DNA of 64,000 nt from Vulcanimicrobiota bacterium (GTDB lineage: Bacteria > Vulcanimicrobiota > Vulcanimicrobiia > Vulcanimicrobiales > Vulcanimicrobiaceae), in contig CAVTWE010000003.1 in NCBI GenBank assembly GCA_963738335.1, positions 5,433-69,432 on the forward strand, in the 5' to 3' direction. The translations under genes and the position numbers were made by a program. Shown piece after piece: positions 1,212-36,639 of this stretch. How positions within the stretch are numbered: position 1 is the first letter of the stretch; each line of letters begins with the position of its first letter. Under the pieces are notes generated by a model. It had not been told where the DNA came from, searched no databases, and was given only the letters and a program-made list of their open reading frames with translations.

Positions 1212-1981
1212 CGCTGCGGATCCTGATCACCAACGACGACGGCATAGACTCGCCCGGCATCGCCGCGCTGGTCGAAGCGCTGACGCCCCATCATGAGGTG
1301 ACCGTGGTCGCGCCAACCGGCGATCGCAGCGGGGTTTCGCATGCAATCACCGGCGACGTAGCGATCACACTCGAGCGTCGAGCCGGCTTTGCCGTCGCGG
1401 CGTATGCGTGTTCCGGAACCCCGGCCGACTGCGTCTTTCTCGGTTCCACCGAACTCGGCCAACGGCCGGATCTCGTCGTCAGCGGCATCAACTACGGACC
1501 GAATCTCGCCGACGACATCAACTACTCCGGCACGGTTGCCGGCGCCGTCGAGGCCTGTCTGCTCGGCATACCCGCGATGGCTGCGTCGCTTGCGTGCGAG
1601 TACGAACGTCCGGCAGACGGTCCTCATTGGAATGCCGCAGCCGAGATCGTGCGGCGCTGCATCGTGCGCGGTTACGAAACGTTCTCCGACGTACGCTACT
1701 ACTGGAATCTCAACGTTCCGGATCTTTCGATCGACGCAATTTCCGGCATTGCGGTGACGCGCTTGGGACGCAAGCGCATCTGCGGCAGAATGGTCGGCGA
1801 AGACGGCGATGTTGGCGTTGCATATTATCGCGCCTGGGAGTCGCCGTTTGAAACGGATCGTTCGACGTCGGGCACGGACATCGGCGCCGTGCACGCTGGT
1901 TACGCCAGCCTGACGCCTCTGGTGCTCGATCGCACAGCGCCGTCGGCACCGGGCATCTCTGAAACCTTCGCCGAGCGCTGA
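1208..1981 (+). CDS. surE: 5'/3'-nucleotidase SurE (start uncertain: CTG 1208/1214 or TTG 1166)
   Basis: ...LRILITNDDGIDSPGIAALVEAL...VVAPTGDRSGVSHAIT... is the canonical SurE N-terminus. Homology begins at (L)RILITNDDG. The only canonical start (TTG 1166) adds an Arg-rich 16-aa extension that overlaps msrB. Confidence 0.85.
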   Translation: MTLRILITNDDGIDSPGIAALVEALTPHHEVTVVAPTGDRSGVSHAITGDVAITLERRAGFAVAAYACSGTPADCVFLGSTELGQRPDLVVSGINYGPNLADDINYSGTVAGAVEACLLGIPAMAASLACEYERPADGPHWNAAAEIVRRCIVRGYETFSDVRYYWNLNVPDLSIDAISGIAVTRLGRKRICGRMVGEDGDVGVAYYRAWESPFETDRSTSGTDIGAVHAGYASLTPLVLDRTAPSAPGISETFAER

Positions 1982-2862
1982 CCGTTCGGACCGGCGGTTT
2001 CGGCATGTCTGCGATTCGCGAGACGCCGCCCCGTCAGTGCCGCGATCTCCGATAAGCGCTGCATCAGCGCTTCGAACTGCGGGACGTCGAGGGATTGGGC
2101 GCCGTCGGAAAGCGCTCGAGGCGGATCCGGATGCACTTCGACCAACAAACCGTGCGCGCCGGCCGCGAGGCTGGCGACGGCGACCGCAGGCACCAAACGC
2201 GCGATACCGACTGCATGCGACGGATCGACGATAGTGGGCAGGTGCGTCATCTCTTCGAGCAGCGGCACCACCGCAATATCGAGCAAGTTGCGCGTCGCAA
2301 CGTCGAACGAACGCACCCCGCGTTCGCACAGCACGACGTCCTCGTTACCGCCGACCATCACGTATTCGGCAGCGAGTAACCATTCTTGCACCGTTGCCGA
2401 CAATCCGCGTTTGAGCAACACGGGCGTCCGAACCGCGCCCACCTCTCGGAGCAGGACGAAGTTCTGCATGTTGCGAGCGCCGATCTGCAGCATGTCGGCA
2501 TACCTGCAGACTTTCTCGACGTCGCGCGGGTCGAGCACCTCGGTGACGACGGCGAGATTGGTGCGATCGCCGGCATCGCGCAGCAACTTGAGTCCTTCTT
2601 CTCCAAGTCCCTGAAACGAGTAGGGGGAGGTCCGCGGCTTATACGCGCCCCCGCGCAAGACGTTGGCGCCGGCAGCGGCAACCGCTCTTGCTGCCGTTTC
2701 TAATTGTTCGCGCGACTCGACACCGCACGGGCCCGCGCAAATCGCAATTTCGTCGCCGCCGAACGCGGCGCCATTGCGCAAACGCACGACCGTGCGTTCG
2801 GGTTTGGCGTCGCGGCGGACAAGACGGTATGACTGCGGTACGTTGACCCCTCGCTCCATCAA
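1900..2862 (-). CDS. aroF: 3-deoxy-7-phosphoheptulonate (DAHP) synthase, type I-beta
   Basis: AICAGPCGVESREQLETAARAV...VLRGGAYKPRTSPYSFQGLGEEGLKLL...MLQIGARNMQNF...VLLKRG...DPSH matches the KDO8P/DAHP synthase I-beta family. The 3' end overlaps surE convergently. The last ~35 aa are non-homologous. Confidence 0.9.
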   Translation of the reverse strand: MMERGVNVPQSYRLVRRDAKPERTVVRLRNGAAFGGDEIAICAGPCGVESREQLETAARAVAAAGANVLRGGAYKPRTSPYSFQGLGEEGLKLLRDAGDRTNLAVVTEVLDPRDVEKVCRYADMLQIGARNMQNFVLLREVGAVRTPVLLKRGLSATVQEWLLAAEYVMVGGNEDVVLCERGVRSFDVATRNLLDIAVVPLLEEMTHLPTIVDPSHAVGIARLVPAVAVASLAAGAHGLLVEVHPDPPRALSDGAQSLDVPQFEALMQRLSEIAALTGRRLANRRHAETAGPNGQRSAKVSEMPGADGAVRSSTRGVRLA

Positions 2863-2946
2863 GCGCGCCTTCGAGGCTCAGGGTATGCCGGCCTCGCCTC
2901 GACCATTTATATCATGCACGTACCGCCGGCAGGGCAGGCGTGAGGT

Positions 2947-4176
2947 GTGAGGCCCCCGCACAAGACGCGCGTGGAGCATGTCGCAGTCACTGGAATGGGA
3001 GTCGTTTCGCCCATCGGCGCGACGGTGCAACGCTTTTGGGATGGATTGACGGAAAGCCGGCGCGCCATTGGGCCCATCGCCGATGCCCCCGTCAAGCTGA
3101 CCGGCAACGGCTTGTGGGCCGCCGTCCGCGACGATTTTCTCCGCGACGCGCCGCTGGAAGCGAGCGCATTGCGCAATACCGATCGCTTCACGCAGTATGC
3201 AGTCGCCGCGACGGCACACGCGCTCGCGCAGGCGCACCTCACTCCACCGGACGACACCGCGGTCATCGTCGGCAACACGATGGGCGGTCTGCCCTTCCTC
3301 GCACAATCGCAAAGCCGATTCATCGAAAGCGGCGGCCGATCGGTTTCGCCCAAGCTGATGGCATTGGTTATTCCGAACATGGCGCCCGCGCGCATCGCGA
3401 TGCACTGGAGCCTCCACGGTCTGCAACTTGCGATCAGCACGGCATGCGCTTCATCGCTCGATGCGATCGGCATGGCCGCAAAGATGATCGAGCGCGGCGA
3501 AGTCGAGACGGCGATCGCCGGCGGCACGGAGACGCTGTTGAGTCCGCTCGTCTACGAATCGCTCGTTCGCGCCGGAGCGCTGTCGCGCAACGAGGACGTA
3601 CAGCGGTCGTCTCGCCCATTCGATATCGAACGGGACGGGTTCGTCATGGGCGACGGCGGCGCGATCCTCATCTTAGAACGCGCCGAGCGCGCGACGCGGC
3701 GCGGTGCGCCGATTCTTGCGCGCATCCGCGGCTACGGTTCGATAGCCGACGCCCATCACATCACCTCGCCGGATCCGTCGGCGCGCTACGAAATTGCAGC
3801 GATGGAACGAGCGTGCGCCCAAGCCGGCGATGCGGCGTCCGCGTGCTCCGTCATCTACGCGCATGCAACCGGCACGATCGTGGGCGATGCCGCCGAGATG
3901 CGCGCGATCAACTCGGTCAATCCACGTGCGATCGTCACCTCCATTAAGGGTCACATCGGTCATAGCATGGCCGGCGCGGGTGCACTCTGCGCCGTCGCCG
4001 GCATTGCAGGAATGCACGCCCAATGCATTCCGCCGACAATGGGAACGCAGCATCCCGACGGTGAGGTGTGCTTCGACCTCGTCATGGGAGGACCGCGAAC
4101 GTTCGCCTACGACGCGTTTCAAGTCAACGCGTTCGGCTTCGGCGGCCAAAACGCGTCGCTGGTGCTCTCGCGATAA
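2947..4176 (+). CDS. beta-ketoacyl synthase, KAS I/II (FabF/FabB-like) family
   Basis: VAVTGMGVVSPIG...; active-site Cys in AISTACASSLDAIGMAAKMI; His motifs YAHATGT and KGHIGHSMAGAG; C-terminal NAFGFGGQNASLVL. An alternative GTG start lies at 2971. Confidence 0.9.
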   Translation: MRPPHKTRVEHVAVTGMGVVSPIGATVQRFWDGLTESRRAIGPIADAPVKLTGNGLWAAVRDDFLRDAPLEASALRNTDRFTQYAVAATAHALAQAHLTPPDDTAVIVGNTMGGLPFLAQSQSRFIESGGRSVSPKLMALVIPNMAPARIAMHWSLHGLQLAISTACASSLDAIGMAAKMIERGEVETAIAGGTETLLSPLVYESLVRAGALSRNEDVQRSSRPFDIERDGFVMGDGGAILILERAERATRRGAPILARIRGYGSIADAHHITSPDPSARYEIAAMERACAQAGDAASACSVIYAHATGTIVGDAAEMRAINSVNPRAIVTSIKGHIGHSMAGAGALCAVAGIAGMHAQCIPPTMGTQHPDGEVCFDLVMGGPRTFAYDAFQVNAFGFGGQNASLVLSR

Positions 4177-4243
4177 TGCGCGTGCAGGGCGTGTTGGACG
4201 AAACTCGGAAGGTTCGCGCGAGCACCCTCGTGATAGGACGCCG

Positions 4244-7200
4244 ATGAATCTTCTCGTCAAGGGAACGAGTGGACCGCTGACCGGCGAACTCGTCGTTCCA
4301 AACTCGAAATATCACGCGCATCGCGCGTTGATTTTGGCATCGCTCGCGCCGGGCACCAGCCGCATCGTCGGGCTCTCCGGCGCGCGCCACGTTGAGTTTA
4401 CGATGGACGTGTTGCGCGCGCTCGGCACGACGATCGAAGCGCGCGACGGCGATCTGTATGTGACTGGCGGTCCCTATCGCGTCCAACGCTCGACGGTATC
4501 GGTCGGAAGCTCCGGTTCGACGCTCTACTTCATGATCGGTCTCGCGTCGCTGGCCGACGCACCGATTACCCTGACGGCGCAGAAATATTTCCAGCGGCGT
4601 CCCGTTGGGCCGCTGCTCGAAGCGCTGGATGCGTTGGGCGTGCGCTTCGAAGCGAACGCCGGCTGTCCGCCCATCGCCGTTTTTCCGGGGCGGCCGCACG
4701 GCGGTCACATCGTCATCTCCGGCACGCTTTCGCAATGGATCTCGGGGTTGTTGCTGCTGGCGCCGTTCGCGCGCGAGCGCACGACGATCGAAATCGACGG
4801 CGAGTTGAACGAACGGCCGTATCTAGCGCTGACCGTGCAAATGATGCGCGCATTCAATCTCGAGGTCGCTATAGCCAAAGATTGGCGGTGTTTTGAGATC
4901 GAGCCGAATCAAGAAGCGCGTCCCGCAACCGTCGAGTTGCCGCCCGACATCGGTTCGGCCGCGTTTGGGCTCGCCATGACCGCGCTACATCCTTCGGACG
5001 TCGTGTTCCATGGTCTCGGCGACCCGCGTTCGCAGCGCACAGACCATCCCGAAGCGGCATTCCTCGACATCGTCGCGGACATGGGACTGCCGATGCAGTA
5101 CGATCCCGCCTCGAAAACCGTGCGCGTGCGCCACGATGGCCTCGACCTGCGCGGCGTACGCGTCGATTGTCGCGATATTCCCGACATGCTGCCGGTTCTC
5201 TCGACGCTGGGAACGTTCGCTCGCGGCGAGACGGTGCTGGAAAACATAGCGCACGTTCGTCTCAAAGAATCCGATCGGGTCGCAGCGATGCTGCAACTCA
5301 ATCGCATGGGCGGCCAGATCGAGTTGCTCGACGACCGGCTGGTAGCGCATGGCATACGAGAACTGCGCGGAACGCATCTCTCCTCGTTCAACGATCATCG
5401 GATATTGATGTCGCTGGCCGTGGCAGCGTCGCGCGCACACGGAGAGAGTACGCTGACGTATCCGCACGCGTACCGCATTTCCTATCCACAGTTCCTGGAT
5501 GCGATGCGCTCGATCGGCGTGTCGATGTCGGTCGTCAACTCGTCGGCCGATGCCCGGCGTCAGCCGCCATCCGCCATGCTGACGCCGGACGAGGCGGCCG
5601 GACGCACGATGCACGAACTGCTCACCGAACGCGCACAGGCGTCCCCAGAACAACCTGCGGTCGTTGAAACGCGCGACGACGGCGACGTCGCGCTCTCATG
5701 GCGGGATCTGGCAGATCGGGTGGATCGCACTGCAATGCTCCTGCTCGAACTCGGCGTGCGTCCCGGCGAATGCGTCGCGTTTCAGCTCCCTAACTGCCTG
5801 GAGTTCGTCGTCATCGCGTTGGCGACGCTGCGCATCGACGCCGTGTGCTGTCCGCTGATGCCGATCTTCCGCGAACGTGAAGTGGCGTTCTGCTTGCGCC
5901 GCTCGCGCGCGCGGGTGCTTTTCGTTCCGGATGAAGCGCGCGGGCGCCGTCACGCCGACGAAATCGCGACGCTGCTGCGCGAAGCGACCGTGTCGGAGGG
6001 CGATTTCCCCCTCTGCTTGGAGCATGTCGTGGTGTGCGCGGGCGGCGCGATTCCGTATACGCTCCCAGCGCCCGATTATAACGACCGTTCGTCGTCGTGG
6101 CTGCGCTTCGCCGACGCGCTCAACGCCGTGCGCGTGGATGCCGCCTCCCTTGCATCGCGCGCACCACAGTCAAACGCCGTCGCACAACTGCTCTTTACAT
6201 CGGGAACGTCGGGCGAACCTAAGGGCGTCTTGCATCGCAACGACGTGTTGATGCGCGCGGCCGCAATGGAGGTCGAGCATCTGCATCTCGGGCCCGACGA
6301 TCGCATCTTCATCCCATCGCCGCTCGCGCATCAGACGGGTTTCCTTTACGGGATGTGGTTGGCGCTGGTCATGGGTGTGCCGCAGATCGTGCAGCCGGTG
6401 TGGAACGCCCAGCGCGCGCTGCGGGCGCTACGGGATTGGAACGGCACGTTCGTCCAAGCCGCCACGCCGTTTTTGGCGGATCTTGTCGACGCCGTCAAAG
6501 AAGGTGAATCCGCAGCGCCCACGTTGCGAATCTTCGTCGCAACCGGCGCCGCGGTGCCGCGTACTTTAGCCGAACGCGCTACGCGCATTCTGGGAACCGC
6601 CGTCTGTGGAGCGTGGGGCACGACCGAATCGTGTTTGGGATCGCTTGCAGCGCCGACCGACGAGCCGGCGAAAGTGTGGGGAACCGATGGTCGCGCGCTG
6701 CGCCGCATTCATCTCCGCATTGCCGATGCTGAAGGCCGGCTGCTGGCCGCCGGCGAGGAAGGCCACTTCGAGGTGCTCTCGCCGACGATGTTCGTCGGAT
6801 ACGCCGATCGTCCCGAATGGACCGCCGCCGCATATACACCCGACGGATGGTTTCGCACCGGGGATCTGGGCGTGATGGACGAGGCGGGCTTCATCCGCAT
6901 TACCGGCCGCGTGCGCGACGTCATCAATCGCGGCGGCGAGAAAGTTCCGGTTGCGGAGATGGAGCAACTGCTCTCCGATCATCCGGCGATCGCCGCCATC
7001 GCGATCGTCGCGATGCCGGACGAGCGTCTCGGCGAGCGGGCATGCGCGTTCGTGCAACTGCGCCCGAGGATGCGCTTCACGTTCGAACAGATGAAACACT
7101 ATCTCCACGCGTGCCAAGCGTCGAAGCACTATTGGCCGGAACGACTCGAGATCGTCGACGAACTCCCGCGCACCGCCTCCGGCAAGATCCAAAAGTACGT

Positions 7201-7261
7201 CTTACGCGAACGGGCGCGCGAACTGCGGCCGCAAGAGCGCGAACGCGCGACCATCGGGTGA
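4244..7261 (+). CDS. fusion protein: EPSP-synthase-like (3-phosphoshikimate 1-carboxyvinyltransferase fold) domain + AMP-dependent acyl-CoA ligase domain
   Basis: A single uninterrupted frame. Residues from ATG 4244 (MNLLVKGTSGPLTGELVVPNSKYHAHRALILASLA...LKESDRVAAM...NDHRILMSLAVAA) are EPSPS-like up to ~5545. From ~5576 the sequence is an adenylate-forming ligase (LLFTSGTSGEPKGVLH, GWFRTGDLG...GRVRDVINRGGEKV, PRTASGKIQK). The track start at 3794 is an out-of-context extension that overlaps the KAS gene. Confidence 0.85.
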   Translation: MNLLVKGTSGPLTGELVVPNSKYHAHRALILASLAPGTSRIVGLSGARHVEFTMDVLRALGTTIEARDGDLYVTGGPYRVQRSTVSVGSSGSTLYFMIGLASLADAPITLTAQKYFQRRPVGPLLEALDALGVRFEANAGCPPIAVFPGRPHGGHIVISGTLSQWISGLLLLAPFARERTTIEIDGELNERPYLALTVQMMRAFNLEVAIAKDWRCFEIEPNQEARPATVELPPDIGSAAFGLAMTALHPSDVVFHGLGDPRSQRTDHPEAAFLDIVADMGLPMQYDPASKTVRVRHDGLDLRGVRVDCRDIPDMLPVLSTLGTFARGETVLENIAHVRLKESDRVAAMLQLNRMGGQIELLDDRLVAHGIRELRGTHLSSFNDHRILMSLAVAASRAHGESTLTYPHAYRISYPQFLDAMRSIGVSMSVVNSSADARRQPPSAMLTPDEAAGRTMHELLTERAQASPEQPAVVETRDDGDVALSWRDLADRVDRTAMLLLELGVRPGECVAFQLPNCLEFVVIALATLRIDAVCCPLMPIFREREVAFCLRRSRARVLFVPDEARGRRHADEIATLLREATVSEGDFPLCLEHVVVCAGGAIPYTLPAPDYNDRSSSWLRFADALNAVRVDAASLASRAPQSNAVAQLLFTSGTSGEPKGVLHRNDVLMRAAAMEVEHLHLGPDDRIFIPSPLAHQTGFLYGMWLALVMGVPQIVQPVWNAQRALRALRDWNGTFVQAATPFLADLVDAVKEGESAAPTLRIFVATGAAVPRTLAERATRILGTAVCGAWGTTESCLGSLAAPTDEPAKVWGTDGRALRRIHLRIADAEGRLLAAGEEGHFEVLSPTMFVGYADRPEWTAAAYTPDGWFRTGDLGVMDEAGFIRITGRVRDVINRGGEKVPVAEMEQLLSDHPAIAAIAIVAMPDERLGERACAFVQLRPRMRFTFEQMKHYLHACQASKHYWPERLEIVDELPRTASGKIQKYVLRERARELRPQERERATIG

Positions 7262-8391
7262 CGGATTTCCAACGGCTCAAGGCCGAGATCGCCGACTACG
7301 TCGCGGGGCCGGCGGAAACATGGGCGCAACGCATCGAACGCGAGCGCCGCGTTCCCATGGAGTTGTGGGAGGAGTTGCGCGATCGCGGTTTCCTTAGGTT
7401 GGCGGCGCCCGTCGAATACGGCGGCCGCGGGATACCGTTCTCGCAGTATCTCGAACTCGTCGAACTCTTCTCGATGTCGCACGCCTCTATACGGATGATC
7501 GTCCACGTCGTCAACGGCACGTGGCGCGCGATGGATCGCTACGCGACGCCGGAGCAGCGCGAGCAGTTCGTGCTGCCCTCAATTCGCGGCGACGTGAAAA
7601 TCGCGTTCACGCTGACCGAGCCGACCGCGGGAACGGGCGCCGATTTGCGGTGCAGCGTCGAACGGGAGGACGAGACGTACTATCTCAGCGGTGAGAAGCA
7701 CCTCATCACCTTCGGCACGATCTGCGATTACTGGTTGCTCTTCGCGCGCCTCGCCGGAACGACGGGCGCCGATGGAACGGTCGCGCTACTCGTGGATCGT
7801 CACGCGCCCGGCGTAACGGTCACAGCAATGGACGAATCGATGGGCGTGCGCGGCACCGATCACGGGCGTCTGACGTTTTCTCGCACTCCCGTTCCCATCG
7901 CGCAACGGCTTGGCGGCGAAGGGCAAGGCTTGGAGATCGCGCTCGGCGGCTTTCTGACGCCGAGCCGCATTTCGGTCGCGATGAGCTGCGTCGGGCTCGC
8001 GCGACGGGCACAGGAGCTCGCAGTCGCGTACGCGCGCACGCGTCAAACGTTCGGTAAACGTCTCGAGCAGCGACAGGCAATTCGCTTCATGATCGCAGAG
8101 AATGCCACCGAGATCGAAGCGGCGCGCCAACTCACGCTGCACGCTGCTCGCTGTTGGGAGGCGGGGGACCCGGCGGCGGCGATGCTTTCCTCGATGTCCA
8201 AGCTGCAAGCCGTCGACATGCTGACGCGCGTGACCGATAAAGCGCTGCAAATCCACGGCGGCATCGGCTACTGGCAACCACACGCGATCGAGCGCGTTTA
8301 CCGCGACGCGCGCGCGCAACGCTTCGAAGAGGGGACGAACGAAATTCAAAAGACCGTCATCGCCCGCCAGATTCTCGGCGGCTTCTTCCGC
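7258..8391 (+). CDS. acyl-CoA dehydrogenase family protein (no stop codon before the following SDR as assembled)
   Basis: GTG 7258 overlaps the stop of the upstream fusion ORF (GTGA). FTLTEPTAGTGADLRCSVE...YYLSGEKHLITFG...IHGGIGY...YRDARAQRFEEGTNEIQKTVIARQIL is a typical ACAD. The frame then runs on into MSTRFAGTIALITG. Confidence 0.88.
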
Positions 8392-9197
8392 ATGAGTACG
8401 CGTTTCGCCGGAACGATCGCATTGATCACCGGAAGTTCGCGCGGTATCGGTCGAGCGCTGGCGCTAGCGCTCGCCGAACAAGGCGCCTCCATCGTCGTGA
8501 ATTACCATCGCAACGACGTCTTGGCCGCCGAGGTTTGTGCTGCCGTTGAGGGATTCGGCGGCCGCGCATTTGCGTGCAGGCCAATATGGAAGAACCCGCC
8601 GACATCGACCGCTTGTTCGATGCGGCGAAGGCCGAGTTCGGACGGCTCGATTTCTTTATCTCAAACGCCGCAGCCAGTTCGTTCAAGAAGATCGACGATC
8701 TCAAAGCACACAACCTCGATCGCTCTTATGCGCTCAACGTGCGCGCGTTCGTGCTGGGCGCACAGCGCGCCGCACGTTTGATGCCGGGTGGCGGACGCAT
8801 CGTCGTGCTCTCGAGCTACGGCAGCATTCGCGCGTATCCGACCTACGCGAATCTCGGTTCGAATAAAGCCGCGATCGAAGCATGGGTGCGCTACATGGCG
8901 GTCGAATTCGCGCCGCGCGGCATTAACGTCAATGCGGTCAACGGCGGATTGATCGACACCGAATCGTGCGCGTACTTTTACGAAAACGTGCCCGGAATGG
9001 CGCCGATCGAAAGCGTTTTGGAGAAGATTCCCAAGCGCCGCATGGGAACCGCGCGCGAAGTCGCCGATGCGATCGCTTTTCTGCTCGCGCCGGAGTCCGA
9101 CTACATCACCGGGCAGACCCTGTGCGTCGACGGCGGTCTGAACGTCATCGCGCCGCCCTTTTACGCCGACACGACGCCGCCGCTCTCGTTGGAGTAG
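8392..9197 (+). pseudogene. short-chain dehydrogenase/reductase (ChcA/FabG/FabI-like enoyl/ketoacyl reductase), frame-disrupted near 8573
   Basis: The N-terminus IALITGSSRGIGRALALALAEQGASIVVNY...GGRAFA is in frame 0. The remainder [14 protein letters not shown]...NAAAS...VLSSYGS...[14 protein letters not shown]...[10 protein letters not shown]...GQTLCVDGG is in the frame of ORF 8574..9197. One missing base in gcg(g)tgcag would restore AFAVQAN. Confidence 0.85.
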
Positions 9198-9284
9198 GAG
9201 TCTGCCGGATGACGGCCGTCTTCGGATCCCCGGTCGCAAAAGGCGCCGTGAGACGGAAATGCGCCGTAATCCGGTAGACTGCTA

Positions 9285-11289
9285 ATGCTTTCCGCGGCGC
9301 TGCGGCCCGGCAGCATCGGCACGCTGCGTCTGCCCAACCGAATCGTCATGGGCTCGATGCACCTCGGCATCGAGGCGAACGGCGCCGCCCTCGGCGAGTT
9401 CTACGCGCTACGGTCGAAGGGCGGCGCGGCGCTCATCGTGACCGGCGGCTCGTGCGTCAATCGCGCGGGCGCCGGTGGACGCAACTACAGTTTCATCAAC
9501 GAAGAAACGTCCACTCCGCCCCTTGCGCGCGCCGCCGAGGCCGTGCATCGCGCCGGCGGACGCATCGCGCTGCAGCTGTTCCATGCCGGGCGCTACGCGT
9601 ACCGCGAATCGTTCGGCATCCAACCGGTTGCGCCGTCGGCAATCGCGTCGCGCTTTTCGCCCGATCCGCCGCGCGCGATGGACGAACGCGACATCGAGCA
9701 GACCATCGCCGATTTTGCAAGCGGCGCGGAGCGCGCCCGCGCGCTGGGTTTCGATGCAGTCGAAGTGATGGCGTCGGAAGGCTATCTGCTCAATCAGTTT
9801 CTTTCGCCCTTGACGAACTGCCGCGACGATGCATGGGGCGGCGATCTCGAACGGCGCATGCGAATGCCGCTGACCGTTCTGCGCGCCATCCGCAGCGCCG
9901 CAGGCGATGATTTCCCGGTGATATTCCGCATTTCGGGCGCCGATTTGATGCCAGGATCGAGCACACAGGACGAAAGCTTGGCGTTCGCCCGACGGCTCGT
10001 CGCCGAACGGCGTCGACGCGCTCAACGTCGGCATCGGCTGGCACGAATCGCGAATTCCGACCGTGCAGCAGCTGGTGCCGCATGGCGTGTGGGTGCGCTT
10101 CGCAACCGCGGTCAAGGGCGTCGCCGGCGATTTGCCGGTGATCGCGAGCAATCGCATCAACAGCATGGAACTCGCCGAGAGCGTGCTCGCATCGGGAGCA
10201 GCGGACTTCGTTTCCATGGCACGTCCGTTTCTCGCCGACGCGGAGATCGTCGCCAAGTCGGTGCGCGGCGACGCGGCACTGGTGGACACGTGCATCGCGT
10301 GCAATCAAGCGTGCATCGACCGTTCCTTGATCGACGCGCCGGTGTCGTGCATGGTCAATCCGCGCGCCGGCCGCGAAATCGACTTCCCCGAACGGCGGAC
10401 CGTTGCGCCGCGTCGTTTTGCCGTCGTCGGCGGTGGCCCTGCGGGAATGGAGTGCGCGCGCGCCTTGGCGGCGCTCGGCCATCGCGTCGAGGTATTCGAA
10501 GCGGAAACCGAGTTGGGTGGTCAGTTTCGCATGGCGCGCCGCATTCCGGGAAAAGCCGAGTTCGGCGAAACGATCCGCTACTTCAGCAACGAGTTGCCGC
10601 GGCTCGGCGTTATCGTGCACTTGACTGCGCGGGTGCGGGATGCACGGTCGCTGCGCGGTTTCGACGGCGTCGTACTGGCCACGGGCGTGCTGCCCAAAAG
10701 GATAACCATGGACGGCCGAGGTCTGGCGCACGTCATAGACTACGCACAACTTCTCGCGCACGATGTACCGGCCGGTGAGCGGGTCGCAATTCTCGGCGCC
10801 GGCGGCATCGGCGTCGACGTCGCGCACTTCCTCAGTCACGGCCGGACGGATGCCGATGTAACGACTCGCTTTCTCTACGAGCAAGGTTTGGCGGCGCCCG
10901 AAGACGGCGCCGTGCTCGTCACCAGACGCAAGACCGTCGCGATGATGCGTCGGGGACATAGCATCGGCGAGCGCCTCGGCAAGACGACGCGCTGGGCGGT
11001 GCTCGCCGCGTTACGCGCAGCAGGCGTCAACACGATTACCGGCGTCGTCTATGAAGCGATCGAACCTGGCGGGATTCGCGTGCGCACCGCTTCAGGTGAG
11101 GCGCGGCTGGTCGAAGCAGATACGGTGATCGTTGCGGCCGGCCAAGAACGCAACGACGCACTCCTCGACGGCATTCGCTCGTTGGACGTTCCCTACCGCG
11201 TCGTTGGAGGCGCCAAGGATGCCGCCGAACTCGACGCCGTCCGGGCCTTCGAGGAAGGTTTACGAGCGGCACACGAGCTTTGCCGCTAA
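9285..11289 (+). pseudogene. 2,4-dienoyl-CoA reductase-like flavoprotein (OYE/FMN barrel + 4Fe-4S + FAD/NAD(P) domain), frame-disrupted near 10008
   Basis: The N-terminus LPNRIVMGSMH...LQLFHAGRY...FDAVEVMASEGYLLNQFLSP...DAWGG is in ORF 9285. It continues GVDALNVGIGWHESRIPTVQQ...CIACNQACIDR...FAVVGGGPAGMECARALAALGHRVEVFE...GGQ in ORF 10063..11289. Confidence 0.88.
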
Positions 11290-11312: not shown

Positions 11313-11597
11313 CTACAGCGAACCGGCGCCGTTCAACAGCGACTGCAACTCCACCACATGATCGGCGAATGCGTCGCGCCCTTTTTGCGTTAAGCGATAG
11401 CGTGTCAGCGGGCGGCGACTCACGAAGCGCTTCTCCTCCTGGACGTATCCCGCTTCCACCAGTTTGCCGAGATGCGCGCCGAGATTGCCGCCGGTGGTTT
11501 CCAGTGCGCGCACGAGTTCGGTGAAGGTTACCCAATCGTAGTTGATGAGCTCCGCAACGACGCCGAGGCGTATTTTTGACAAGAGCAGTTCGTTCAC
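11313..11597 (-). CDS. winged-helix transcriptional regulator (HTH_34/ArsR-like small regulator)
   Basis: 94 aa: LGVVAELINYDWVTFTELVRALETTGGNLGAHLGKLVEAGYV...RPLTRYRLTQKGRDAF is a winged-helix pattern. Confidence 0.7.
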   Translation of the reverse strand: MNELLLSKIRLGVVAELINYDWVTFTELVRALETTGGNLGAHLGKLVEAGYVQEEKRFVSRRPLTRYRLTQKGRDAFADHVVELQSLLNGAGSL

Positions 11598-11606
11598 GTC
11601 GGTCGG

Positions 11607-12185
11607 CTAATCTCGGGAAAAGAGTTCGGTAAGGCCGAATCCGCCGTAACCGACGAGCATGCCGGCCGCCAAAATGTACGCCGACGGCGTCGCGCTTTGA
11701 AAGTTCGCGACGATGAGCGATGCGACGACCACGACGCCCGCAACCAGCGCGCGCCGGTTGCCGTGCATTCCGATGTACAGCAAGACGATCGCTTCGACGA
11801 CGCTCCATATGGCCGCCGATGCGATGCCGGGAAAGAGATGGAACGCCGCGACGTCTGCGACGAAGGCAAGGACCACCGTGATCCAGAGCACCTTAAAGAA
11901 CTCGCGTTGCACGAGCGAACTGCGCGTTAGCGTCCGATTCAGCTGTCGCCCGCGCACGAACGAAAACATCGCGCACGCAACGAGAATCGCCGGAGCGCAC
12001 CACGCCGAGTTCGACGGTAGCCGTCCGCTGTCGATCGCGGCAAAGAGCGCCGTCACCGCCGCCGAACCGGCGCCCCAAACGACGAAGAACTCGCCTCCGG
12101 CGCAAAGCCGCTGCTGCGTTTGCTGCAAGATGCGATCGACCATGGCGATCTGTTCTTGCGCTTGGGTCTGATCGAAGCCGTTCAC
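11607..12185 (-). CDS. hypothetical polytopic membrane protein (operonic with the wHTH regulator)
   Basis: 192 aa with about 5 hydrophobic segments and a GTG start. It lies 10 nt upstream of the regulator gene. Confidence 0.6.
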   Translation of the reverse strand: MNGFDQTQAQEQIAMVDRILQQTQQRLCAGGEFFVVWGAGSAAVTALFAAIDSGRLPSNSAWCAPAILVACAMFSFVRGRQLNRTLTRSSLVQREFFKVLWITVVLAFVADVAAFHLFPGIASAAIWSVVEAIVLLYIGMHGNRRALVAGVVVVASLIVANFQSATPSAYILAAGMLVGYGGFGLTELFSRD

Positions 12186-12779: not shown

Positions 12780-13161
12780 GTGCTGGAGATTACGTTTTTC
12801 CGCGACGGCGACGGCCGGTTCGCGGGATTTGCCGCGCGCGGGCACGCCGATTTTGCCGAGTACGGGCAAGATATCGTCTGCGCGGCGGTCTCGGCGATTT
12901 TGCAAGCAGCGCGTCTCGGACTGGAGCACTACGCCGCCGGCGAGATCGAGGCGACGCAAGAGCGCGGGCTCATGCGGCTCGTCGTCGGCGAGGGCCGGCG
13001 CGACGATGAAAGCATCGCCGCGATCGGCACGACCGCCGATCTTGGCCGTCACGCAGGTCGCGCGGCGTTTTAACGACCACGTGAGCATCGGCCACGAGAC
13101 GATCGAGGGCGACGCGAAACGTGGCGCCACATTTCGGGTATCAAACGTGGCAAACGACTAA
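12780..13161 (+). pseudogene. ribosomal-processing cysteine protease Prp (L27 N-terminal protease), apparent frameshift near 13040
   Basis: The His/Cys dyad context is present: RGHADFAEYGQDIVCAAVSAILQ. After ...DDESIAAIGTTA the family-typical C-terminal helix (ILAVTQVARRFNDHVSI) is read only in the frame of ORF 12829..13161. Confidence 0.7.
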
Positions 13162-13172
13162 GGAGAATAACA

Positions 13173-13454
13173 ATGTCGGAAAGTTTTCGCACGAGCCCGG
13201 CCGATCAGCCGTGGTCCACGTCCAGAGGCGGCGGCAACGGTTCGCAGAGCGGCTTGGAGCCCAACTCGCAGGATATGGATAGCGGTGAAGCCGGTAAAGT
13301 GGTGTTGGCCGGCGTGCTCGGCGGTTTATTGTCGGCCGCGGGTTATATGATCTATCGCCGTCTTCCCGAGGATCAGAAGGAACGGCTGCACTCGCAGGTT
13401 CGCTCGATCGTGCAGCAGCGCATCACCGAGATTCGCCAAAACTTCAATATCTAG
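13173..13454 (+). CDS. hypothetical small membrane-anchored protein
   Basis: A strong SD (AAGGAG) sits 8 nt before the ATG. There is one TM segment (VVLAGVLGGLLSAAGYMIY) followed by a charged helix. It occupies the position where rpmA is normally found. Confidence 0.6.
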   Translation: MSESFRTSPADQPWSTSRGGGNGSQSGLEPNSQDMDSGEAGKVVLAGVLGGLLSAAGYMIYRRLPEDQKERLHSQVRSIVQQRITEIRQNFNI

Positions 13455-13683
13455 CGGCCGCCGAACGGCTCCGGCGGTTCGGGCGGCACGGGCGGTGCAG
13501 GCGGCGGCGCATGCGGCTCGTTCGCATCCGCCGCGCGTTCCATTTCTGCGACGAACGATGCGACGTGTTCTGCACTTCCCGCATAAAGCGGCCGGCCTGG
13601 CGCATCACTTTGGGCAGCCGGTCCGGCCCAAAGAGCATCAGCGCAAGGACCGAAACGACGAGAACGTCGGGAACGGAGAACAT
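13451..13683 (-). pseudogene. tatA: Sec-independent translocase subunit TatA/TatB family, apparent frameshift near 13560
   Basis: MFSVPDVLVVSVLALMLFGPDRLPKVMRQAGRFMREVQ is a canonical Tat TM plus amphipathic helix. The plausible acidic/Pro tail (ASFVAEMERAADANEPHAPPPAPPVPPEPPEPFGGR*) is in the adjacent frame. The in-frame continuation is an Arg-rich string. Confidence 0.75.
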
Positions 13684-13769
13684 CGCCCCTAGTTTCCGGA
13701 CACGGCGTGCGCCGTTCCGCCGCTGCGGCAGGGCTGCCTTGGGTACCCGGCCAAGCAAGACGGCCCGCT

Positions 13770-14048
13770 GTGAAGATCGTGTACACGCGCGGCAACCGTA
13801 CCGAAACGCTGGCATCCCTGACGACCCTGCGAAAGATTCTCAATCGCTTCGTCGCACGTCGCGTTTTCTACGAAGTCTCGAGCCGGAACGCACGCGGCCA
13901 AGAGTTTTTCTCGGCCAAGAACTTGTTCGTCGTCGGCCTCATCGAGGTGAGCAACGTCGAACATCTGCGCATCCTCGTTTTCGATGCGAACAATTCGGCG
14001 CATTCGATCGAGATCCTCAATCCCGCAAACGATGCGCATCTACGATGA
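13770..14048 (+). CDS. hypothetical protein
   Basis: GTG start. VKIVYTRGNRTETLASLTTLRKILNRF...FVVGLIEVSNVEHLRILVFD. High GC3 in this frame. I recognise no family. Confidence 0.4.
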   Translation: MKIVYTRGNRTETLASLTTLRKILNRFVARRVFYEVSSRNARGQEFFSAKNLFVVGLIEVSNVEHLRILVFDANNSAHSIEILNPANDAHLR

Positions 14049-14250
14049 GATTCCGGGACGCGGTTTCGCCGTTTCCTTTGTCAGCGGCAACGAGGAAAGC
14101 GTCGAAACGCGCTGCTACCTCCGCGACGAAGGCGATCAGAACGAAGGCATCCACGAACGCACTGCGCTGGAACGCATCACGTTGCCGCAACTCTTCCAGT
14201 ACCTCGAAGCGATTACGACCAGCGAAACGGCCGCAAGCGGCCAGGGCTGA
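14031..14250 (+). CDS. hypothetical protein (overlaps preceding ORF by 18 nt; the two could be one frameshifted gene)
   Basis: MRIYDEIPGRGFAVSFVSGNEESVETRCYLRDEGDQNEGIHERTALERITLPQLFQYLEAI... The composition is protein-like. Confidence 0.4.
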
Positions 14251-14672
14251 ATCTGCGCCTTGCGCGCGCGCCATTCGAGACGCTGCGCCTGGCGTAACGC
14301 GCGCACGCCTTCGGCGATGCGTCCCGTCTTTTTATATGCCACGCCGAGATTGAAATAGGCGACGGCATATTCCGCGTCGGCAGCAATCGCGCGTTCGTAG
14401 TGCTCGATCGCGCCGGCGACGTCGTCGTCTTCCAAAGCAAGATTGCCGAGGTTCGTCAAAGCGCCGGCGTGGCGCGGATGCAGCTGCAGCGCTGCGTGCG
14501 AAATCCTCGCGCGCCTCATGGCGTTTTCCTAAACCCATGCGAGCGACGCCGCGCTTATTGTGGAGAAAAGCGCGTTCCGCGGGCTCGGCCTCATCGCGCG
14601 CCAGCAGCGCGTCAAGCTCGCGCTCGCGCGCGTTCGAAATCGCGGCGTTCGAGCGCGTCGAGCGCGCAAGCA
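14136..14672 (-). pseudogene. tetratricopeptide-repeat protein, apparent frameshift near 14495; 3' end uncertain
   Basis: ATG 14672 gives ...AERAFLHNKRGVARMGLGKRHEAREDFA in one frame. It continues ...AALQLHPRHAGALTNLGNLALEDDDVAGAIEHYERAIAADAEYAVAYFNLGVAYKKTGRIAEG in the frame of ORF 14136..14519. Confidence 0.65.
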
Positions 14673-14708
14673 TATTCGGGCCGGTTCGCAAACACTTGTG
14701 ACGGACAT

Positions 14709-15414
14709 GTTCTCGGTGGATCTCGTTACGCTCTTTCCCGAGCTCTTCGCACCGTTCGTCGGACTCTCGATCCTCGGGCGCGCCGTCGAAGCCGGTTTGG
14801 TCGGCGTGCGCTACCATCATTTGCTCGACGACCTTGAACCGAGCGAACGCGCCGACGATGCACCGTTCGGCGGAGGCCCGGGAATGGTTTTGCGCATCGA
14901 GCCGATCGCCCGGGCGCTGGACGCCATCGTAGCGCAAGCGCCGGCCGGCGAACGACGGCTCATCGTCGTGCCGAGCGCGGCGGGGCGGCCCTTCGATCAG
15001 CGGGAGGCCGAGCGCTGTTCGACCCTCGACCGGATCGTTTTCGTCTGTGGTCACTATGAGGGAATCGACGATCGCCTAGGCCGGCTCTACGAGGTGGAAG
15101 AGTATTCCTTGGGCGATTTCGTGATGACCGGCGGCGAAATTGCGGCGCTCGCTTTTCTCGACGCAACCGTTCGTCTGGTCCCGGGCGTGGTCAACGCCGC
15201 CTCGCTGGCCCAAGAGTCGTTCGCATCGGGCTGGCTCGACTACCCCTCGTATACGCGGCCCGCGGCGTTCCGCGGGATCGACGTGCCGGCGGTCCTGCTT
15301 TCGGGCGATCACGCTGCCATTGCGAAGTGGCGCCGCGAGGAATCGCGACGCCGGACCGCTCGCCGCCGGGCCGACCTGCTGCAGAGCGCCTTGCACCCGC
15401 AGGAAAAGCCATGA
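14709..15414 (+). CDS. trmD: tRNA (guanine37-N1)-methyltransferase
   Basis: MFSVDLVTLFPELF...DDAPFGGGPGMVL...VCGHYEGIDDR...EYSLGDFVMTGGEIAALAFLDA. Confidence 0.95.
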
Positions 15415-15832: not shown

Positions 15833-15841
15833 CGAGCCGCT

Positions 15842-16504
15842 CTGACACCGCTGCAGCTCGTCGCCGCCGTCGGTCTGCTCGCGATTGCTCGTTTCGCGCT
15901 GTCGCGCCCGCTCCCGAAAAGCACCCCGTTCTTCGATGCGCTGATCGTGGTCGCGTTGGCGATGCTCTTCCTGCTCACGTTCGTCATTCGCACGTTTTAT
16001 ATTCCGTCGGTCTCCATGGTGCCGACGTTGCGCGTAGGCGATGTGCTCTTAGCGGACGAGGTGGCGTATCGGTTCGGTGCGCCGCAAGACGGCGACGTTG
16101 CGCTCTTTCTTCCGCCCGTCTATTCGGGCGGTAATGATTTCGTGAAGCGCGTGGTCGGCGTACCCGGTGACTCCATACGCATCCGCGACGGTATCGTCAT
16201 TCGTAACGGCATCGCGCTGCGCGAGCCGTACGAGAACGAGCCGCCCAACTACGATTTGGCGATTCGCAACGACGAGATCTACGTCAACGGGTCGCCGCTC
16301 GACCGCCATAAAGCCGACATTCCGGGGGCATCGCTCTGGCAGCGACCCGATCGAGTTCCGCGCGATTTCTATTTCGTGCTCGGCGACAACCGCAACTATT
16401 CCGAGGATTCGCACGTGTGGGGTTTCGTGAAAAAGCGCACGTTCACGGGACGCGCATTCGCGATCGTCTGGCCGCCGAGCCGGCTGCAGGCATTGGTGCG
16501 ATAG
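15842..16504 (+). CDS. lepB: signal peptidase I, paralog 1 (homologous N-terminus begins at CTG 15842; first canonical start is GTG 15947)
   Basis: IPSVSMVPTLRVGDVLL...DFVKRVVGVPGD...VLGDNRNYSEDSHVWGFV. The N-terminus LTPLQLVAAVGLLAIAR aligns with MTPMQLLAIVAVIAIVR of paralog 2. Confidence 0.85.
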   Translation: MTPLQLVAAVGLLAIARFALSRPLPKSTPFFDALIVVALAMLFLLTFVIRTFYIPSVSMVPTLRVGDVLLADEVAYRFGAPQDGDVALFLPPVYSGGNDFVKRVVGVPGDSIRIRDGIVIRNGIALREPYENEPPNYDLAIRNDEIYVNGSPLDRHKADIPGASLWQRPDRVPRDFYFVLGDNRNYSEDSHVWGFVKKRTFTGRAFAIVWPPSRLQALVR

Positions 16505-16506
16505 CG

Positions 16507-17241
16507 ATGACACCGATGCAACTCTTAGCCATCGTGGCCGTCATTGCGATCGTGCGCGGGGTGCTATCCTTGCGTCCGGTTGTCGCTTCCTCGTCGGGGC
16601 GCAGCACCGGCATTGCCCGCGAGTTCCTCGATCCGTTCATCGTGGCCGGTCTTGCCGCATGGGTGCTCATTACGTTCGTCGCGCGCACCTATTATATTCC
16701 GTCGGGGTCGATGCTGCCGACGCTGCAGATTCACGACGTGCTCTTGGTGGATAAGTTCGAGTACCGGTTTCATCCGCCGCACGAAGGCGATATCGTCGTC
16801 TTTCCGCCGCCCGTACCGACGCCCGACGATTTCATCAAGCGCGTCATCGGCCGTCCCGGCGATCGGTTACGCATCGCCGGCGGCATCGTCTACGTCAACG
16901 GCGTGGCGCTCCATGAGCCGTATATCGCCGAGAAGCCGTCGTACAATCTCGAGATCCGCGACCACGGTATCTTCATCAACTACGGCGTCGGCTGGCAGCG
17001 GTTGCTCTCCGACGGAGCGAACGTGCCGCCGCCCTCGCAGTGGCTCGCGCCGGATCGCATTCCGCCGCACTGTTACATCATGCTGGGCGATAATCGCAAC
17101 GACTCCGAAGATTCACACATCTGGGGCTTCGCGCAAGACGGCGGCCGGTTCGCCACCGGTCAACGAGCCGGCGCTGAAGGCGGGTTCACCGGACGCGCGT
17201 TTCTGATCTTCTGGCCTCCCTCGCAGGCGAAGATTCTCTAA
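16507..17241 (+). CDS. lepB: signal peptidase I, paralog 2
   Basis: IPSGSMLPTLQIHDVLLV...DFIKRVIGRPGD...MLGDNRNDSEDSHIWGF. The ATG lies 2 nt after the paralog 1 stop. Confidence 0.92.
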   Translation: MTPMQLLAIVAVIAIVRGVLSLRPVVASSSGRSTGIAREFLDPFIVAGLAAWVLITFVARTYYIPSGSMLPTLQIHDVLLVDKFEYRFHPPHEGDIVVFPPPVPTPDDFIKRVIGRPGDRLRIAGGIVYVNGVALHEPYIAEKPSYNLEIRDHGIFINYGVGWQRLLSDGANVPPPSQWLAPDRIPPHCYIMLGDNRNDSEDSHIWGFAQDGGRFATGQRAGAEGGFTGRAFLIFWPPSQAKIL

Positions 17242-17265
17242 GCGGCTACGCGAAAGAGCGCCTTC

Positions 17266-17781
17266 GTGACCCGCGTGCTGCGTTGGCGCTCGATGGCAAG
17301 TCTCGCGGCGCAACTCGTCGTGCTGGGCTTGCTGCTCGCGGCATTCTTCATGCGCACGCCGCAAGTCTGGGGCCTTTCCATGGAGCCGCAGATTCATTCG
17401 GGCCAGTACGTGCTCATCAACACCTTCGCGTATCGGCTGGGTCGACCGCATCGCGGCGACATCGTGGCCTTTCGTCACGACGCAAACGGACGCGTCTTCA
17501 TCAAGCGCGTCATCGGCCTGCCCGGAGACCGCGTTCGCATCGACCGTGGAACCGTGAGCGTCAACGGCACGGCCTTGGCCGAACCGTACGTGCACGGTGC
17601 AGATCGGCGTAGTTTCGCGGAGATCGTCGTACCGCCGCAGGCCGTCTTCGTGCTGGGTGACAATCGGACGAACAGTGAAGATTCGCGCGTCTTTGGTCCT
17701 GTCCGCGACAACACGCTCCTCGGTCACGCAATCGCCGTCATCTGGCCGCCCCACCCGCTGGGCGGGGTACTCTACCGATGA
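17266..17781 (+). CDS. lepB: signal peptidase I, paralog 3 (short form)
   Basis: GLSMEPQIHSGQYVLIN...VFIKRVIGLPGDRV...VLGDNRTNSEDSRVFGPV. Confidence 0.9.
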   Translation: MTRVLRWRSMASLAAQLVVLGLLLAAFFMRTPQVWGLSMEPQIHSGQYVLINTFAYRLGRPHRGDIVAFRHDANGRVFIKRVIGLPGDRVRIDRGTVSVNGTALAEPYVHGADRRSFAEIVVPPQAVFVLGDNRTNSEDSRVFGPVRDNTLLGHAIAVIWPPHPLGGVLYR

Positions 17782-34700: not shown

Positions 34701-35181
34701 CTGGTCCAATAGCGTAACGCCGATCGATCTGCGAACGCAGCGCGCGGGCGCCGAGATTCGCGTGGGTCTTCGGCCCACGGGTTTATCGCTCACGCCCGAC
34801 GGCCGGCGGCTCCTTGTCGTCAACGGCGCGTCGAACGACGTGACGCCGATCGATCTCTCCGGAGCGCAGCCGCAACCGCAGAAGCCGATTCCTGTTGGAA
34901 TATCGCCACTAGCTATCGCGGTTTCGCCCGACGGCCGTATTGCCTACGTCGCCAATCACGCCAACTCGACCGTCACGCCGATCGATCTGCAAACCAACAC
35001 TGCGCGCGCACCGATCGAAGCCGGCGGCGCGCCGGCGGCCGTGATGTTTTCGAGCGACGGCCGGATCGCGTACGTCATTCTTTCCCGCGACAACGCGTAC
35101 GTCACGATCGACGTCGCAAACGGTGCGGTAAGCGCGCCGGTCCTGCTCGGAAACGGCCCGATCGCTATTGTCGCAAAGTAA
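31751..35181 (+). pseudogene. glycoside hydrolase family 92 (alpha-mannosidase-like) fused to C-terminal YVTN-type beta-propeller repeats; apparent frameshift near 32970
   Basis: GH92 N-terminus (LPFGMVQFSPDT...GYEYNDNHITGFSLTHLSGPGC) is in ORF 31751. The catalytic part (GWYYERW...EGNASQYTWMVPQD...GNEPSLGVPWVY...PGNDDLGTMSAWYVW) is in ORF 32983. From ~34300 there are about seven repeats of the ...V.P.G...YV.N..SN.VTPIDL type. Confidence 0.8.
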
Positions 35182-35190
35182 AGGGCGCGC

Positions 35191-36629: not shown

Positions 36630-36639
36630 TACGCGTGCG

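Follow-up and report, generated by a model that had tools for sequence, protein, structure and literature searches.

A conserved Eremiobacterota gene cluster combines a predicted cyclohexanecarboxyl-CoA cassette with a core-only DAHP synthase and a distinct FabF-like ketosynthase

The window analysed here is a stretch of 64,000 nucleotides from a Vulcanimicrobiota bacterium (NCBI GenBank assembly GCA_963738335.1, contig CAVTWE010000003.1, positions 5,433 to 69,432 of the forward strand). Close to its start lies a compact cluster of six genes. A gene for a DAHP (the 7-phosphate of 3-deoxy-D-arabino-heptulosonate) synthase is read from the minus strand, and across a short spacer the plus strand carries the genes for a FabF-like ketosynthase (KS), a fusion of an EPSP (5-enolpyruvylshikimate-3-phosphate) synthase-like (EPSPS-like) domain with an acyl-CoA ligase, an acyl-CoA dehydrogenase (ACAD)-like flavoenzyme, a short-chain dehydrogenase/reductase (SDR) and a FadH-like flavoenzyme of the old yellow enzyme (OYE) type (Table 1). 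Pfam and NCBIfam profile searches are the basis of the domain calls, and L001, a syntenic JGI metagenome contig with 83% DNA identity to the window, served as reference for comparison. The original prediction, made from the nucleotide sequence, had placed the DAHP synthase, the 84-bp spacer, a KAS I/II enzyme and a single EPSPS-like/ligase open reading frame (ORF) exactly where the profile matches and a re-reading of the sequence now find them. The GTGA coupling that it had noted between the fusion and ACAD genes was verified as an overlap at 7258-7261; in L001 the ACAD and SDR genes overlap by ATGA. The G+C content is about 63% throughout the window. All six genes are under purifying selection, with dN/dS ratios (nonsynonymous to synonymous substitution rates) of 0.04-0.14 between the window and L001. 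The closest relatives of the fusion protein (74-90% identity) come from metagenome-assembled genomes (MAGs) labelled 'Candidatus Cybelea', Eremiobacteraeota and Vulcanimicrobiota, and the locus is best read as a biosynthetic divergon of Eremiobacterota (WPS-2; Baltobacteraceae or 'Candidatus Cybelea'-like).

Table 1. Features of the six-gene locus and 1-nt indels in nearby housekeeping genes, in window coordinates
Feature	Position	Strand	Profile match or basis
Type I-beta DAHP synthase, catalytic core only	1900-2862	-	PF00793, TIGR01361, NF006421
Divergent intergenic spacer, 84 nt	2863-2946	.	sequence reading
FabF-like ketosynthase (KS), clade E	2947-4176	+	PF00109, PF02801
EPSP-synthase-like/acyl-CoA ligase fusion, 1005 aa, one ORF	4244-7261	+	PF00275, PF00501, PF13193
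EPSP-synthase-like half of the fusion	about 4244-5530	+	PF00275
Acyl-CoA ligase half of the fusion	about 5600-7261	+	PF00501 (AMP-binding), PF13193 (AMP-binding_C)
ACAD-like flavoenzyme, AnsL/PlmL type	7258-8395	+	PF02771, PF02770, PF00441; stop codon lost
SDR enoyl-CoA reductase, ChcA orthologue	8392-9197	+	adh_short, adh_short_C2, split over two frames
OYE/FadH-like Fe-S flavoenzyme, AnsM/PlmM type	9285-11289	+	PF00724, Pyr_redox_2 (PF07992)
Indel in the gene for ribosomal-processing protease Prp	13041
Indel in the gene for TatA	13558
Indel in an unnamed conserved gene (N-terminal 85 residues 100% identical to L001)	14022
Indels in a tetratricopeptide repeat (TPR) gene	14627 and 14705

The genes for the fusion, the ACAD, the SDR and the FadH-like protein form the core of the cluster. 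In all probability they represent a cyclohexanecarboxyl-CoA (CHC-CoA) biosynthetic cassette that is orthologous to those of actinomycetes, and a conversion of shikimate into CHC-CoA is predicted. The characterised cassettes, i.e. ansJ/K/L-chcA-ansM of Streptomyces collinus, plmJK-plmL-chcA-plmM, asuB1-B4 of the asukamycin pathway and mycA1-A4, share with the present locus the four protein types, the gene order and the EPSPS-like/ligase fusion. The CHC-CoA genes of the phoslactomycin cluster stand in the order plmJK (a single gene), plmL, chcA and plmM (PMC5852498, Table 2), and in ansatrienin biosynthesis the four genes mycA1-A4 serve to turn shikimate into the CHC moiety (PMC13304725). The assignment of the five enzyme types to a CHC-CoA-type pathway, as originally made, is borne out by this order and by the SDR, the intact L001 version of which is 63% identical to AsuB3 and 61% identical to MycA2 over the full length. 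In the window, the part of the SDR beyond a frameshift (see below) is 95.7% identical to its L001 orthologue. A search seeded with a Streptomyces SDR returned proteins under the names 1-cyclohexenylcarbonyl-CoA reductase, AsuB3, MycA2 and AnsA2, and the best solved relative of the SDR is FabL of Bacillus subtilis (3oic).

We collected members of the fusion family with the motifs SKYHAHRA and PLMPIFRE, taking one genome per species; the scan returned at least 569 loci, of which the best 80 were kept. The six proteins were then compared by tblastn with 86 loci, 54 of them from outside Eremiobacterota. The order fusion-ACAD-SDR-FadH is common to nearly all of these 54 loci, which include Streptomyces, Kitasatospora, Lentzea, Actinoplanes, Actinocatenispora, Microlunatus, Sinomonas, Conexibacter and other Solirubrobacterales, Acidimicrobiales, MAGs of Rhodanobacteraceae and one Dormibacteria MAG. 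The fusion of the window (258 bits with PF00275 and 221 bits with PF00501) is 56-63% identical to actinomycete fusions, and the SDR is 60-75% identical to those of non-Eremiobacterota cassettes. The ACAD shares 92% of its residues with L001 and 64-78% with the ACADs of actinomycete cassettes; for the FadH-like protein, which has the Fe-S motif CxxCxxxC...C (CIACNQACID...C), the values are 84-86% for L001 and 46-61% for the fourth gene product of actinomycete cassettes. The dN/dS ratios against L001 amount to 0.08 for the fusion, 0.06 for the ACAD, 0.04 for the SDR and 0.11-0.12 for the FadH-like gene. The original prediction had held the domain fusion to be a feature that distinguishes this cluster from its actinomycete counterparts. 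This view has to be abandoned: because plmJK, the Myc cassette and the recovered actinomycete loci share it, the fusion is the usual form of the family, and it is present in every non-Eremiobacterota locus that we recovered, almost all of them actinobacterial. The true differences are that the Eremiobacterota host is uncultured and belongs to a Gram-negative-type phylum, that the genes lie outside any polyketide synthase (PKS) or nonribosomal peptide synthetase (NRPS) cluster, and that a DAHP synthase and a FabF-like KS of a distinct clade join them in a conserved divergon amid housekeeping genes.

Two variations of the cassette were seen in the comparison. Most Arthrobacter and Cellulomonas cassette loci are devoid of the SDR gene; in L069, L071, L079 and L083-L085 the order is fusion-ACAD-FadH-like, with no ChcA-type SDR within 10 kb. 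Such a three-gene variant may depend on an SDR that is encoded elsewhere. Furthermore, Streptomyces albus subsp. albus NRRL B-1811 has an orphan second copy of the fusion with no ACAD, SDR or FadH-like gene nearby (L074), in addition to a full cassette with a KS of the type termed clade A below (L035).

Fusions of about 1000 aa like this one are named '3-phosphoshikimate 1-carboxyvinyltransferase' at NCBI or 'cyclohexanecarboxylate-CoA ligase' at JGI. The former, AroA-type name arises because the EPSPS-like domain narrowly passes the cut-off of the aroA equivalog model TIGR01356 (307 versus 287). It shares with AroA the full-length EPSP_synthase fold and most residues of the phosphoenolpyruvate (PEP) site and of the catalytic site, but it is fused to a CoA ligase and carries substitutions that are invariant within its family. 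An alignment with the E. coli enzyme revealed that K22, R27, R124, Q171, D313, K340, E341, R344, H385 and R386 are kept, whereas S23Y, N94S, R100Y, S197E, N336H and K411I are changed and one residue of the S169/S170 pair (E. coli AroA numbering) is missing. We take several of the changed positions to be contacts of shikimate-3-phosphate (S3P) in the E. coli EPSPS-S3P-glyphosate structure, and the kept ones to be the PEP and catalytic site. The residue pattern is invariant in 12 diverse members from Eremiobacterota and Actinomycetota, which argues for a specialised family that has been conserved, and not for a housekeeping AroA. We infer from this pattern that the domain would be functional and would bind a shikimate-like ligand other than S3P. 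The fusion is thus regarded as a putative shikimoyl-CoA synthetase of the PlmJK/AsuB1/MycA1 type. Its annotation as 'AroA' is probably a misnomer, and both routine names appear to misdescribe the likely function of the family.

Beyond the cassette itself, the whole arrangement of a minus-strand DAHP synthase gene facing KS-fusion-ACAD-SDR-FadH was found in 28 of 29 assessable Eremiobacterota-type loci. Since the six-gene order recurs in this way, it cannot be attributed to chance. Genes in these high-GC loci were called with a codon-position GC filter, as naive longest-ORF calling gave spurious antisense ORFs. The flanks are constant in Baltobacteraceae: SurE, MsrA and MsrB border the unit at one end, and HTH_34, L21, Prp, TatA, TrmD and L19 at the other. 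In L005, a Vulcanimicrobiaceae contig, the six-gene unit is intact and the flanks are different. The proposal that the DAHP synthase and the KS belong to the unit is therefore upheld, as they are kept even where the flanking genes differ. Two loci depart from the pattern: in L030 (Eremiobacteraeota MAG MFD01872.bin.1.327) the DAHP synthase adjoins the fusion while KS and ACAD are absent within 10 kb, and L040 (an unclassified MAG) has the KS and no DAHP synthase. In agreement with the original prediction, neither the window nor its relatives contain an acyl carrier protein (ACP), PKS or NRPS gene in this neighbourhood, and profile scans of the window also gave no FabH or FabD.

Some contigs and proteins that are about 70-76% identical to proteins of the window (L013, L016 and the proteins P0030, P0332 and P0368) are labelled Candidatus Acidoferrum, Babeliales, Binatia or Dormibacteraeota. 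L013 and L016 show Eremiobacterota synteny, and the labels are probably binning errors in public MAGs.

The DAHP synthase is well supported by PF00793 (251 bits), TIGR01361 (366, cut-off 268) and NF006421 (421, cut-off 335), and it is 91% identical to its L001 orthologue (dN/dS 0.10). Translation likely starts at the ATG at 2859. Because the profile match begins at position 60 (positions 60-336 of 338 are aligned), the enzyme is devoid of the N-terminal regulatory extension. Core-only type I-beta DAHP synthases are not known to be feedback-regulated, a property that would suit a supply role. The spacer presumably holds promoters for both directions. It extends to 108 nt if the KS starts at the alternative GTG at 2971, which agrees with the start called in L001. 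A scan for promoters and terminators gave nothing above chance, and no sigma-70 consensus match of that strength was seen in the spacer. Roughly 10 nt upstream of the point where the DAHP synthase starts, the motif CGCTTCGACG is kept across Baltobacteraceae spacers (15 relatives), and the spacer outside CGCTTCGACG varies among relatives. The motif could be a ribosome-binding or regulatory element.

The KS resembles FabF (KAS II) in fold, length, the Cys-His-His triad, the lysine and the GFGG/Phe gate. Its best solved relatives are KAS II enzymes, headed by that of Thermus thermophilus (1j3n, 256 bits). In contrast to canonical FabF, however, it scores only 354 bits with the fabF model TIGR03150 (cut-off 494), and its counterparts in L005 and L040 reach 375 and 360. 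These sequences form a group, here termed clade E, which comprises the Eremiobacterota orthologues and that of L040. They are 58-84% identical to each other, and with every other KS of the loci the identity is only about 35%. Between the window and L001, the dN/dS ratio of the KS gene is 0.14. The NCBI entry P0270 is 100% identical to the KS of the window. Clade E carries only 'family protein' as NCBI name, and in the loci and in the homologue search it was found solely adjoining the cassette. All members keep the cysteine (STACASS), the histidine (HATGT), the Lys-x4-His element (KGHIGH) and GFGG. Two loops differ when the canonical FabF of the Acidimicrobiales locus is taken as reference: GIGG of FabF corresponds to GNTMGG in clade E, and PLGxxGF to PLVYESLVRAG. 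In E. coli FabF these loops line the acyl pocket and hold its residues Ile108 and Phe202. Judged by its residues, the clade E enzyme is catalytically intact, yet it is not a canonical FabF. The search for KS homologues was filled by Eremiobacterota orthologues of clade E and did not reveal a housekeeping FabF of the phylum.

A FabF-type KS had been proposed to set this cluster apart from those of actinomycetes. This did not hold, as a different FabF-like clade, clade A, directly adjoins the cassette in 23 other loci, almost all actinobacterial. Clade A sequences are 62-100% identical internally, score 474-509 with the fabF model, retain the catalytic residues as clade E does, and have NxAVAG and PVMFxGLSNMG in the place of the two loops. 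They occur in two arrangements, i.e. divergent and upstream of the cassette in Solirubrobacterales, Streptosporangiaceae and Rhodanobacteraceae, or downstream of the FadH-like gene in seven Streptomyces loci, where a second acyl-CoA ligase follows. The Lentzea locus has a third type of KS, and the canonical FabF of the Acidimicrobiales locus scores 576. No ACP or PKS genes were found near the KS in representative loci of clades E and A, including L070. From a genomic perspective, this distribution suggests that FabF-like enzymes have been recruited to CHC cassettes repeatedly, at least two times independently, and these recruitments are the strongest argument, a purely genomic one, for a functional coupling between KS and cassette. 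The seven Streptomyces loci are L035, L051, L061, L064, L070, L072 and L073; their second, stand-alone ligase shares about 31% of its residues with the fusion's ligase half.

On this basis we propose a model for the cluster. The core-only DAHP synthase would raise the flux into the shikimate pathway, and the ligase half of the fusion would activate shikimate to its CoA thioester. The ACAD-like enzyme, the ChcA-type SDR and the AnsM-type enzyme would then alternate dehydrations and double-bond reductions to give CHC-CoA, a chemistry that is known from the literature and is assigned here because these genes are orthologous to those of the AsuB, MycA, Plm and Ans cassettes. In a condensation with malonyl-ACP from the host's type II fatty acid synthase, the clade E KS would use the CHC-derived unit or the earliest short omega-cyclohexyl acyl-ACPs. 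The outcome would be omega-cyclohexyl fatty acids for the membrane, a product plausibly tied to acid tolerance. We assign a probability of roughly 0.6 to the model as a whole, including the KS step and the omega-cyclohexyl membrane lipid.

The same class of product as predicted here, made when a type II fatty acid synthase extends shikimate-derived CHC-CoA, is known from Alicyclobacillus, Sulfobacillus, Curtobacterium and some Microbacteriaceae and Cellulomonas, and these producers share with Eremiobacterota a link to acid-tolerant organisms. A difference is the genetic coupling of the cassette with a FabF-type KS in Eremiobacterota. Cellulomonas timonensis SN7 contains about 1% cyclohexylundecanoic acid according to gas chromatography/mass spectrometry (PMC5913061). 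One of the loci compared (L069) stems from this very strain; it comprises the genes for the fusion, the ACAD and the FadH-like protein, and no SDR or KS within 10 kb. Genotype and phenotype agree here for a cassette that is not part of a PKS cluster. Our literature search found no paper that links Eremiobacterota to cyclohexyl lipids or CHC-CoA.

Several points weigh against the proposed model. The gene neighbourhood is what the role of the KS and the lipid product are deduced from. A dedicated KS is not strictly needed, as illustrated by C. timonensis, which has none next to its cassette, and L030 is an Eremiobacterota locus in which both KS and ACAD are missing. In 2000, Cropp, Wilson and Reynolds reportedly needed no more than the cassette to obtain omega-cyclohexyl fatty acids in Streptomyces. 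There is also no ACP or FabH near the locus as a partner for the KS. The KS and the DAHP synthase could even be housekeeping enzymes if the genomes had no separate canonical fabF, aroA and DAHP synthase. Finally, Vulcanimicrobium alpinus WC8-2, the sole cultured member of Eremiobacterota, has no cyclohexyl fatty acid. As no fusion homologue from this strain was found among the 120 best matches, it probably lacks the cluster, and for this reason we rejected its fatty-acid profile as a test of the model.

The same observations lend themselves to another explanation, according to which the cassette makes CHC-CoA, the KS and the DAHP synthase are ordinary neighbours, and a FabH encoded elsewhere primes fatty acid synthesis. 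Priming with CHC-CoA is attributed to FabH in the established omega-cyclohexyl producers, Alicyclobacillus and Streptomyces, where it is the accepted route, and C. timonensis forms cyclohexylundecanoate with no adjacent KS. We nevertheless regard this scenario as rather unlikely. The adjacency of KS and cassette persists with changed flanks in L005 and in another, unclassified lineage (L040), and the DAHP synthase stays by the fusion in L030 despite the absence of the KS. Mere neighbourhood is also difficult to reconcile with the unrelated FabF-like clade that independently adjoins the cassette in 23 other loci, and with a KS that scores well below the fabF equivalog cut-off and has no more specific name at NCBI than 'family protein'.

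Likewise unlikely, and slightly more so, is a role of the KS in forming a small polyketide or another specialised metabolite, rather than a membrane lipid, from CHC-CoA or a partly reduced shikimate-derived acyl-CoA. In favour of such a product, the characterised Asu, Myc/Ans and Plm homologues all supply secondary metabolites (PMC13304725, PMC5852498), the KS is divergent from FabF (354 versus 494) with altered pocket loops, and in Streptomyces a second acyl-CoA ligase follows the clade A KS. Yet in about 30 Eremiobacterota loci there is no ACP, chain-length factor, cyclase, thioesterase, PKS, NRPS or tailoring gene within 10 kb, and the window is likewise devoid of such genes. Moreover, the locus is set amid ribosomal-protein and other housekeeping genes and seems to be vertically conserved across the family; vertical conservation and a housekeeping setting are more usual for core traits than for clusters of specialised metabolism.

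It is important to note that three genes of the cluster are disrupted in this particular copy, which the original prediction had not mentioned. The DNA alignment with L001 revealed three uncompensated 1-nt indels within 9.4 kb, near 8382, 8568 and 10008. A 1-nt insertion near 8382 takes away the stop codon of the ACAD gene: the L001 protein ends with ILGGSSA, whereas the window carries one extra base there and runs on through ILGGFFRMSTRF directly into the SDR. The SDR gene in turn is interrupted by a 1-nt deletion near 8568, so that its first 60 or so codons lie in the frame of 8392 and the remainder in that of 8574. The FadH-like gene is split by a 1-nt insertion near 10008 into ORFs at 9285-10778 and 10063-11289, with PF00724 in the frame of 9285 and Pyr_redox_2 plus the end of PF00724 in that of 10063. 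The gene models originally given for these three enzymes are thus correct in part. The ACAD domains are present, but the gene has no stop codon and runs into the start of the SDR; because of the indels, the intervals given for the SDR (806 nt) and for the FadH/OYE-type enzyme, with its OYE and Pyr_redox_2 homology, are homology spans and not ORFs. A true ACAD-SDR fusion was considered and rejected by the DNA alignment with L001, by tblastn of the L001 proteins against the window and by the dN/dS ratios.

In principle, the three indels could mean that the cluster is a decaying pseudogene array in this organism, whatever its ancestral function may have been. This is very improbable. At least five similar 1-nt indels are found in the housekeeping genes of the adjacent 4.4 kb downstream, including those for TatA and Prp (Table 1), and split matches of the same kind were seen by tblastn in other long-read MAG loci (L014, L018, L027, L031 and L048). 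Past the frameshifts, the dN/dS ratios between the window and L001 remain at 0.04-0.12. About 28 related genomes carry undamaged orthologues, and all genes are intact in the syntenic, 83%-identical L001. For these reasons the three frameshifts are most likely assembly errors and not signs of gene decay. The split housekeeping genes lie within 12780-15000. The genes for ArgRS and for a GH92 protein match their Pfam profiles only partly (the region 32905-40016 is probably also affected), and overall the window has the look of a long-read assembly that has not been polished.

A catabolic cluster that breaks down shikimate, quinate or cyclohexanecarboxylate via CoA thioesters (ali/bad-like), which the original prediction had named as the alternative to exclude, is hardly credible and was rejected on family scores and gene content: the ligase half has the cyclohexanecarboxylate-CoA ligase AliA (TIGR03208) as its best NCBIfam match and the ACAD also matches the models of CHC-CoA dehydrogenase, but at 463 versus a cut-off of 792 for the former and 150 versus 575 (TIGR03207) and 191 versus 650 (NF043006) for the latter they are remote homologues of AliA and AliB, the SDR belongs with the biosynthetic ChcA-type enzymes (61-63% identity), the loci examined contain no hydratase, 2-ketocyclohexanecarboxyl-CoA hydrolase or transporter as partners, and DAHP synthase, EPSPS-like domain and condensing enzyme would serve no purpose in such a pathway.

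The remainder of the window encodes housekeeping functions, among them YlqF, RNase HII, transporters, ArgRS, PyrF, PyrD, an extracytoplasmic function (ECF) sigma factor and a two-component system; Rfam and tRNA scans of the window were empty. Directly after the FadH-like gene, positions 11313-11606 encode an HTH_34 regulator and positions 11607-12185 a membrane protein of 192 aa. At this place, L001 (16987-18279) and L003 (17039-18325, minus strand) have unrelated ORFs of about 430 aa with no Pfam match, accompanied in L003 by a pair of ABC-2 transporter genes; both the ORF and the pair are absent from the window. Three tandem paralogues of signal peptidase I (Peptidase_S26) lie at 15833-17781. 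Farther downstream, an acyl-CoA carboxylase carboxyltransferase gene (55203-56789) and a gene for a fusion of biotin carboxylase with biotin carboxyl carrier protein (58997-61105) flank a cytochrome b561-like gene on the opposite strand. The carboxylase pair is unrelated to the cluster, and it could bear on acyl-CoA supply.

As the four-gene CHC-CoA cassette is already known, the locus is not a categorically new system. Unreported in the searchable literature are the conserved presence of the cassette in Eremiobacterota, its packaging with a core-only DAHP synthase and a FabF-like KS, and the pairing of FabF-like enzymes with CHC cassettes on repeated, independent occasions. From these findings we tentatively put forward the broader and more doubtful idea that Eremiobacterota build omega-cyclohexyl membrane lipids as a core trait by means of a hitherto unrecognised FabF-derived KS class dedicated to alicyclic chains, and that actinomycetes and some Proteobacteria do so independently by means of a second clade. 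If true, the combination of a CHC cassette with a dedicated KS would be a widespread lipid-remodelling module, and its ketosynthases would be candidates for the engineering of fatty acids with alicyclic tails. The source of omega-cyclohexyl biomarkers in acidic soils would then not need to be Alicyclobacillus. Eremiobacterota are abundant in acidic soils, peat and palsa and have for the most part escaped cultivation; for this phylum, the cluster would represent a concrete membrane adaptation.

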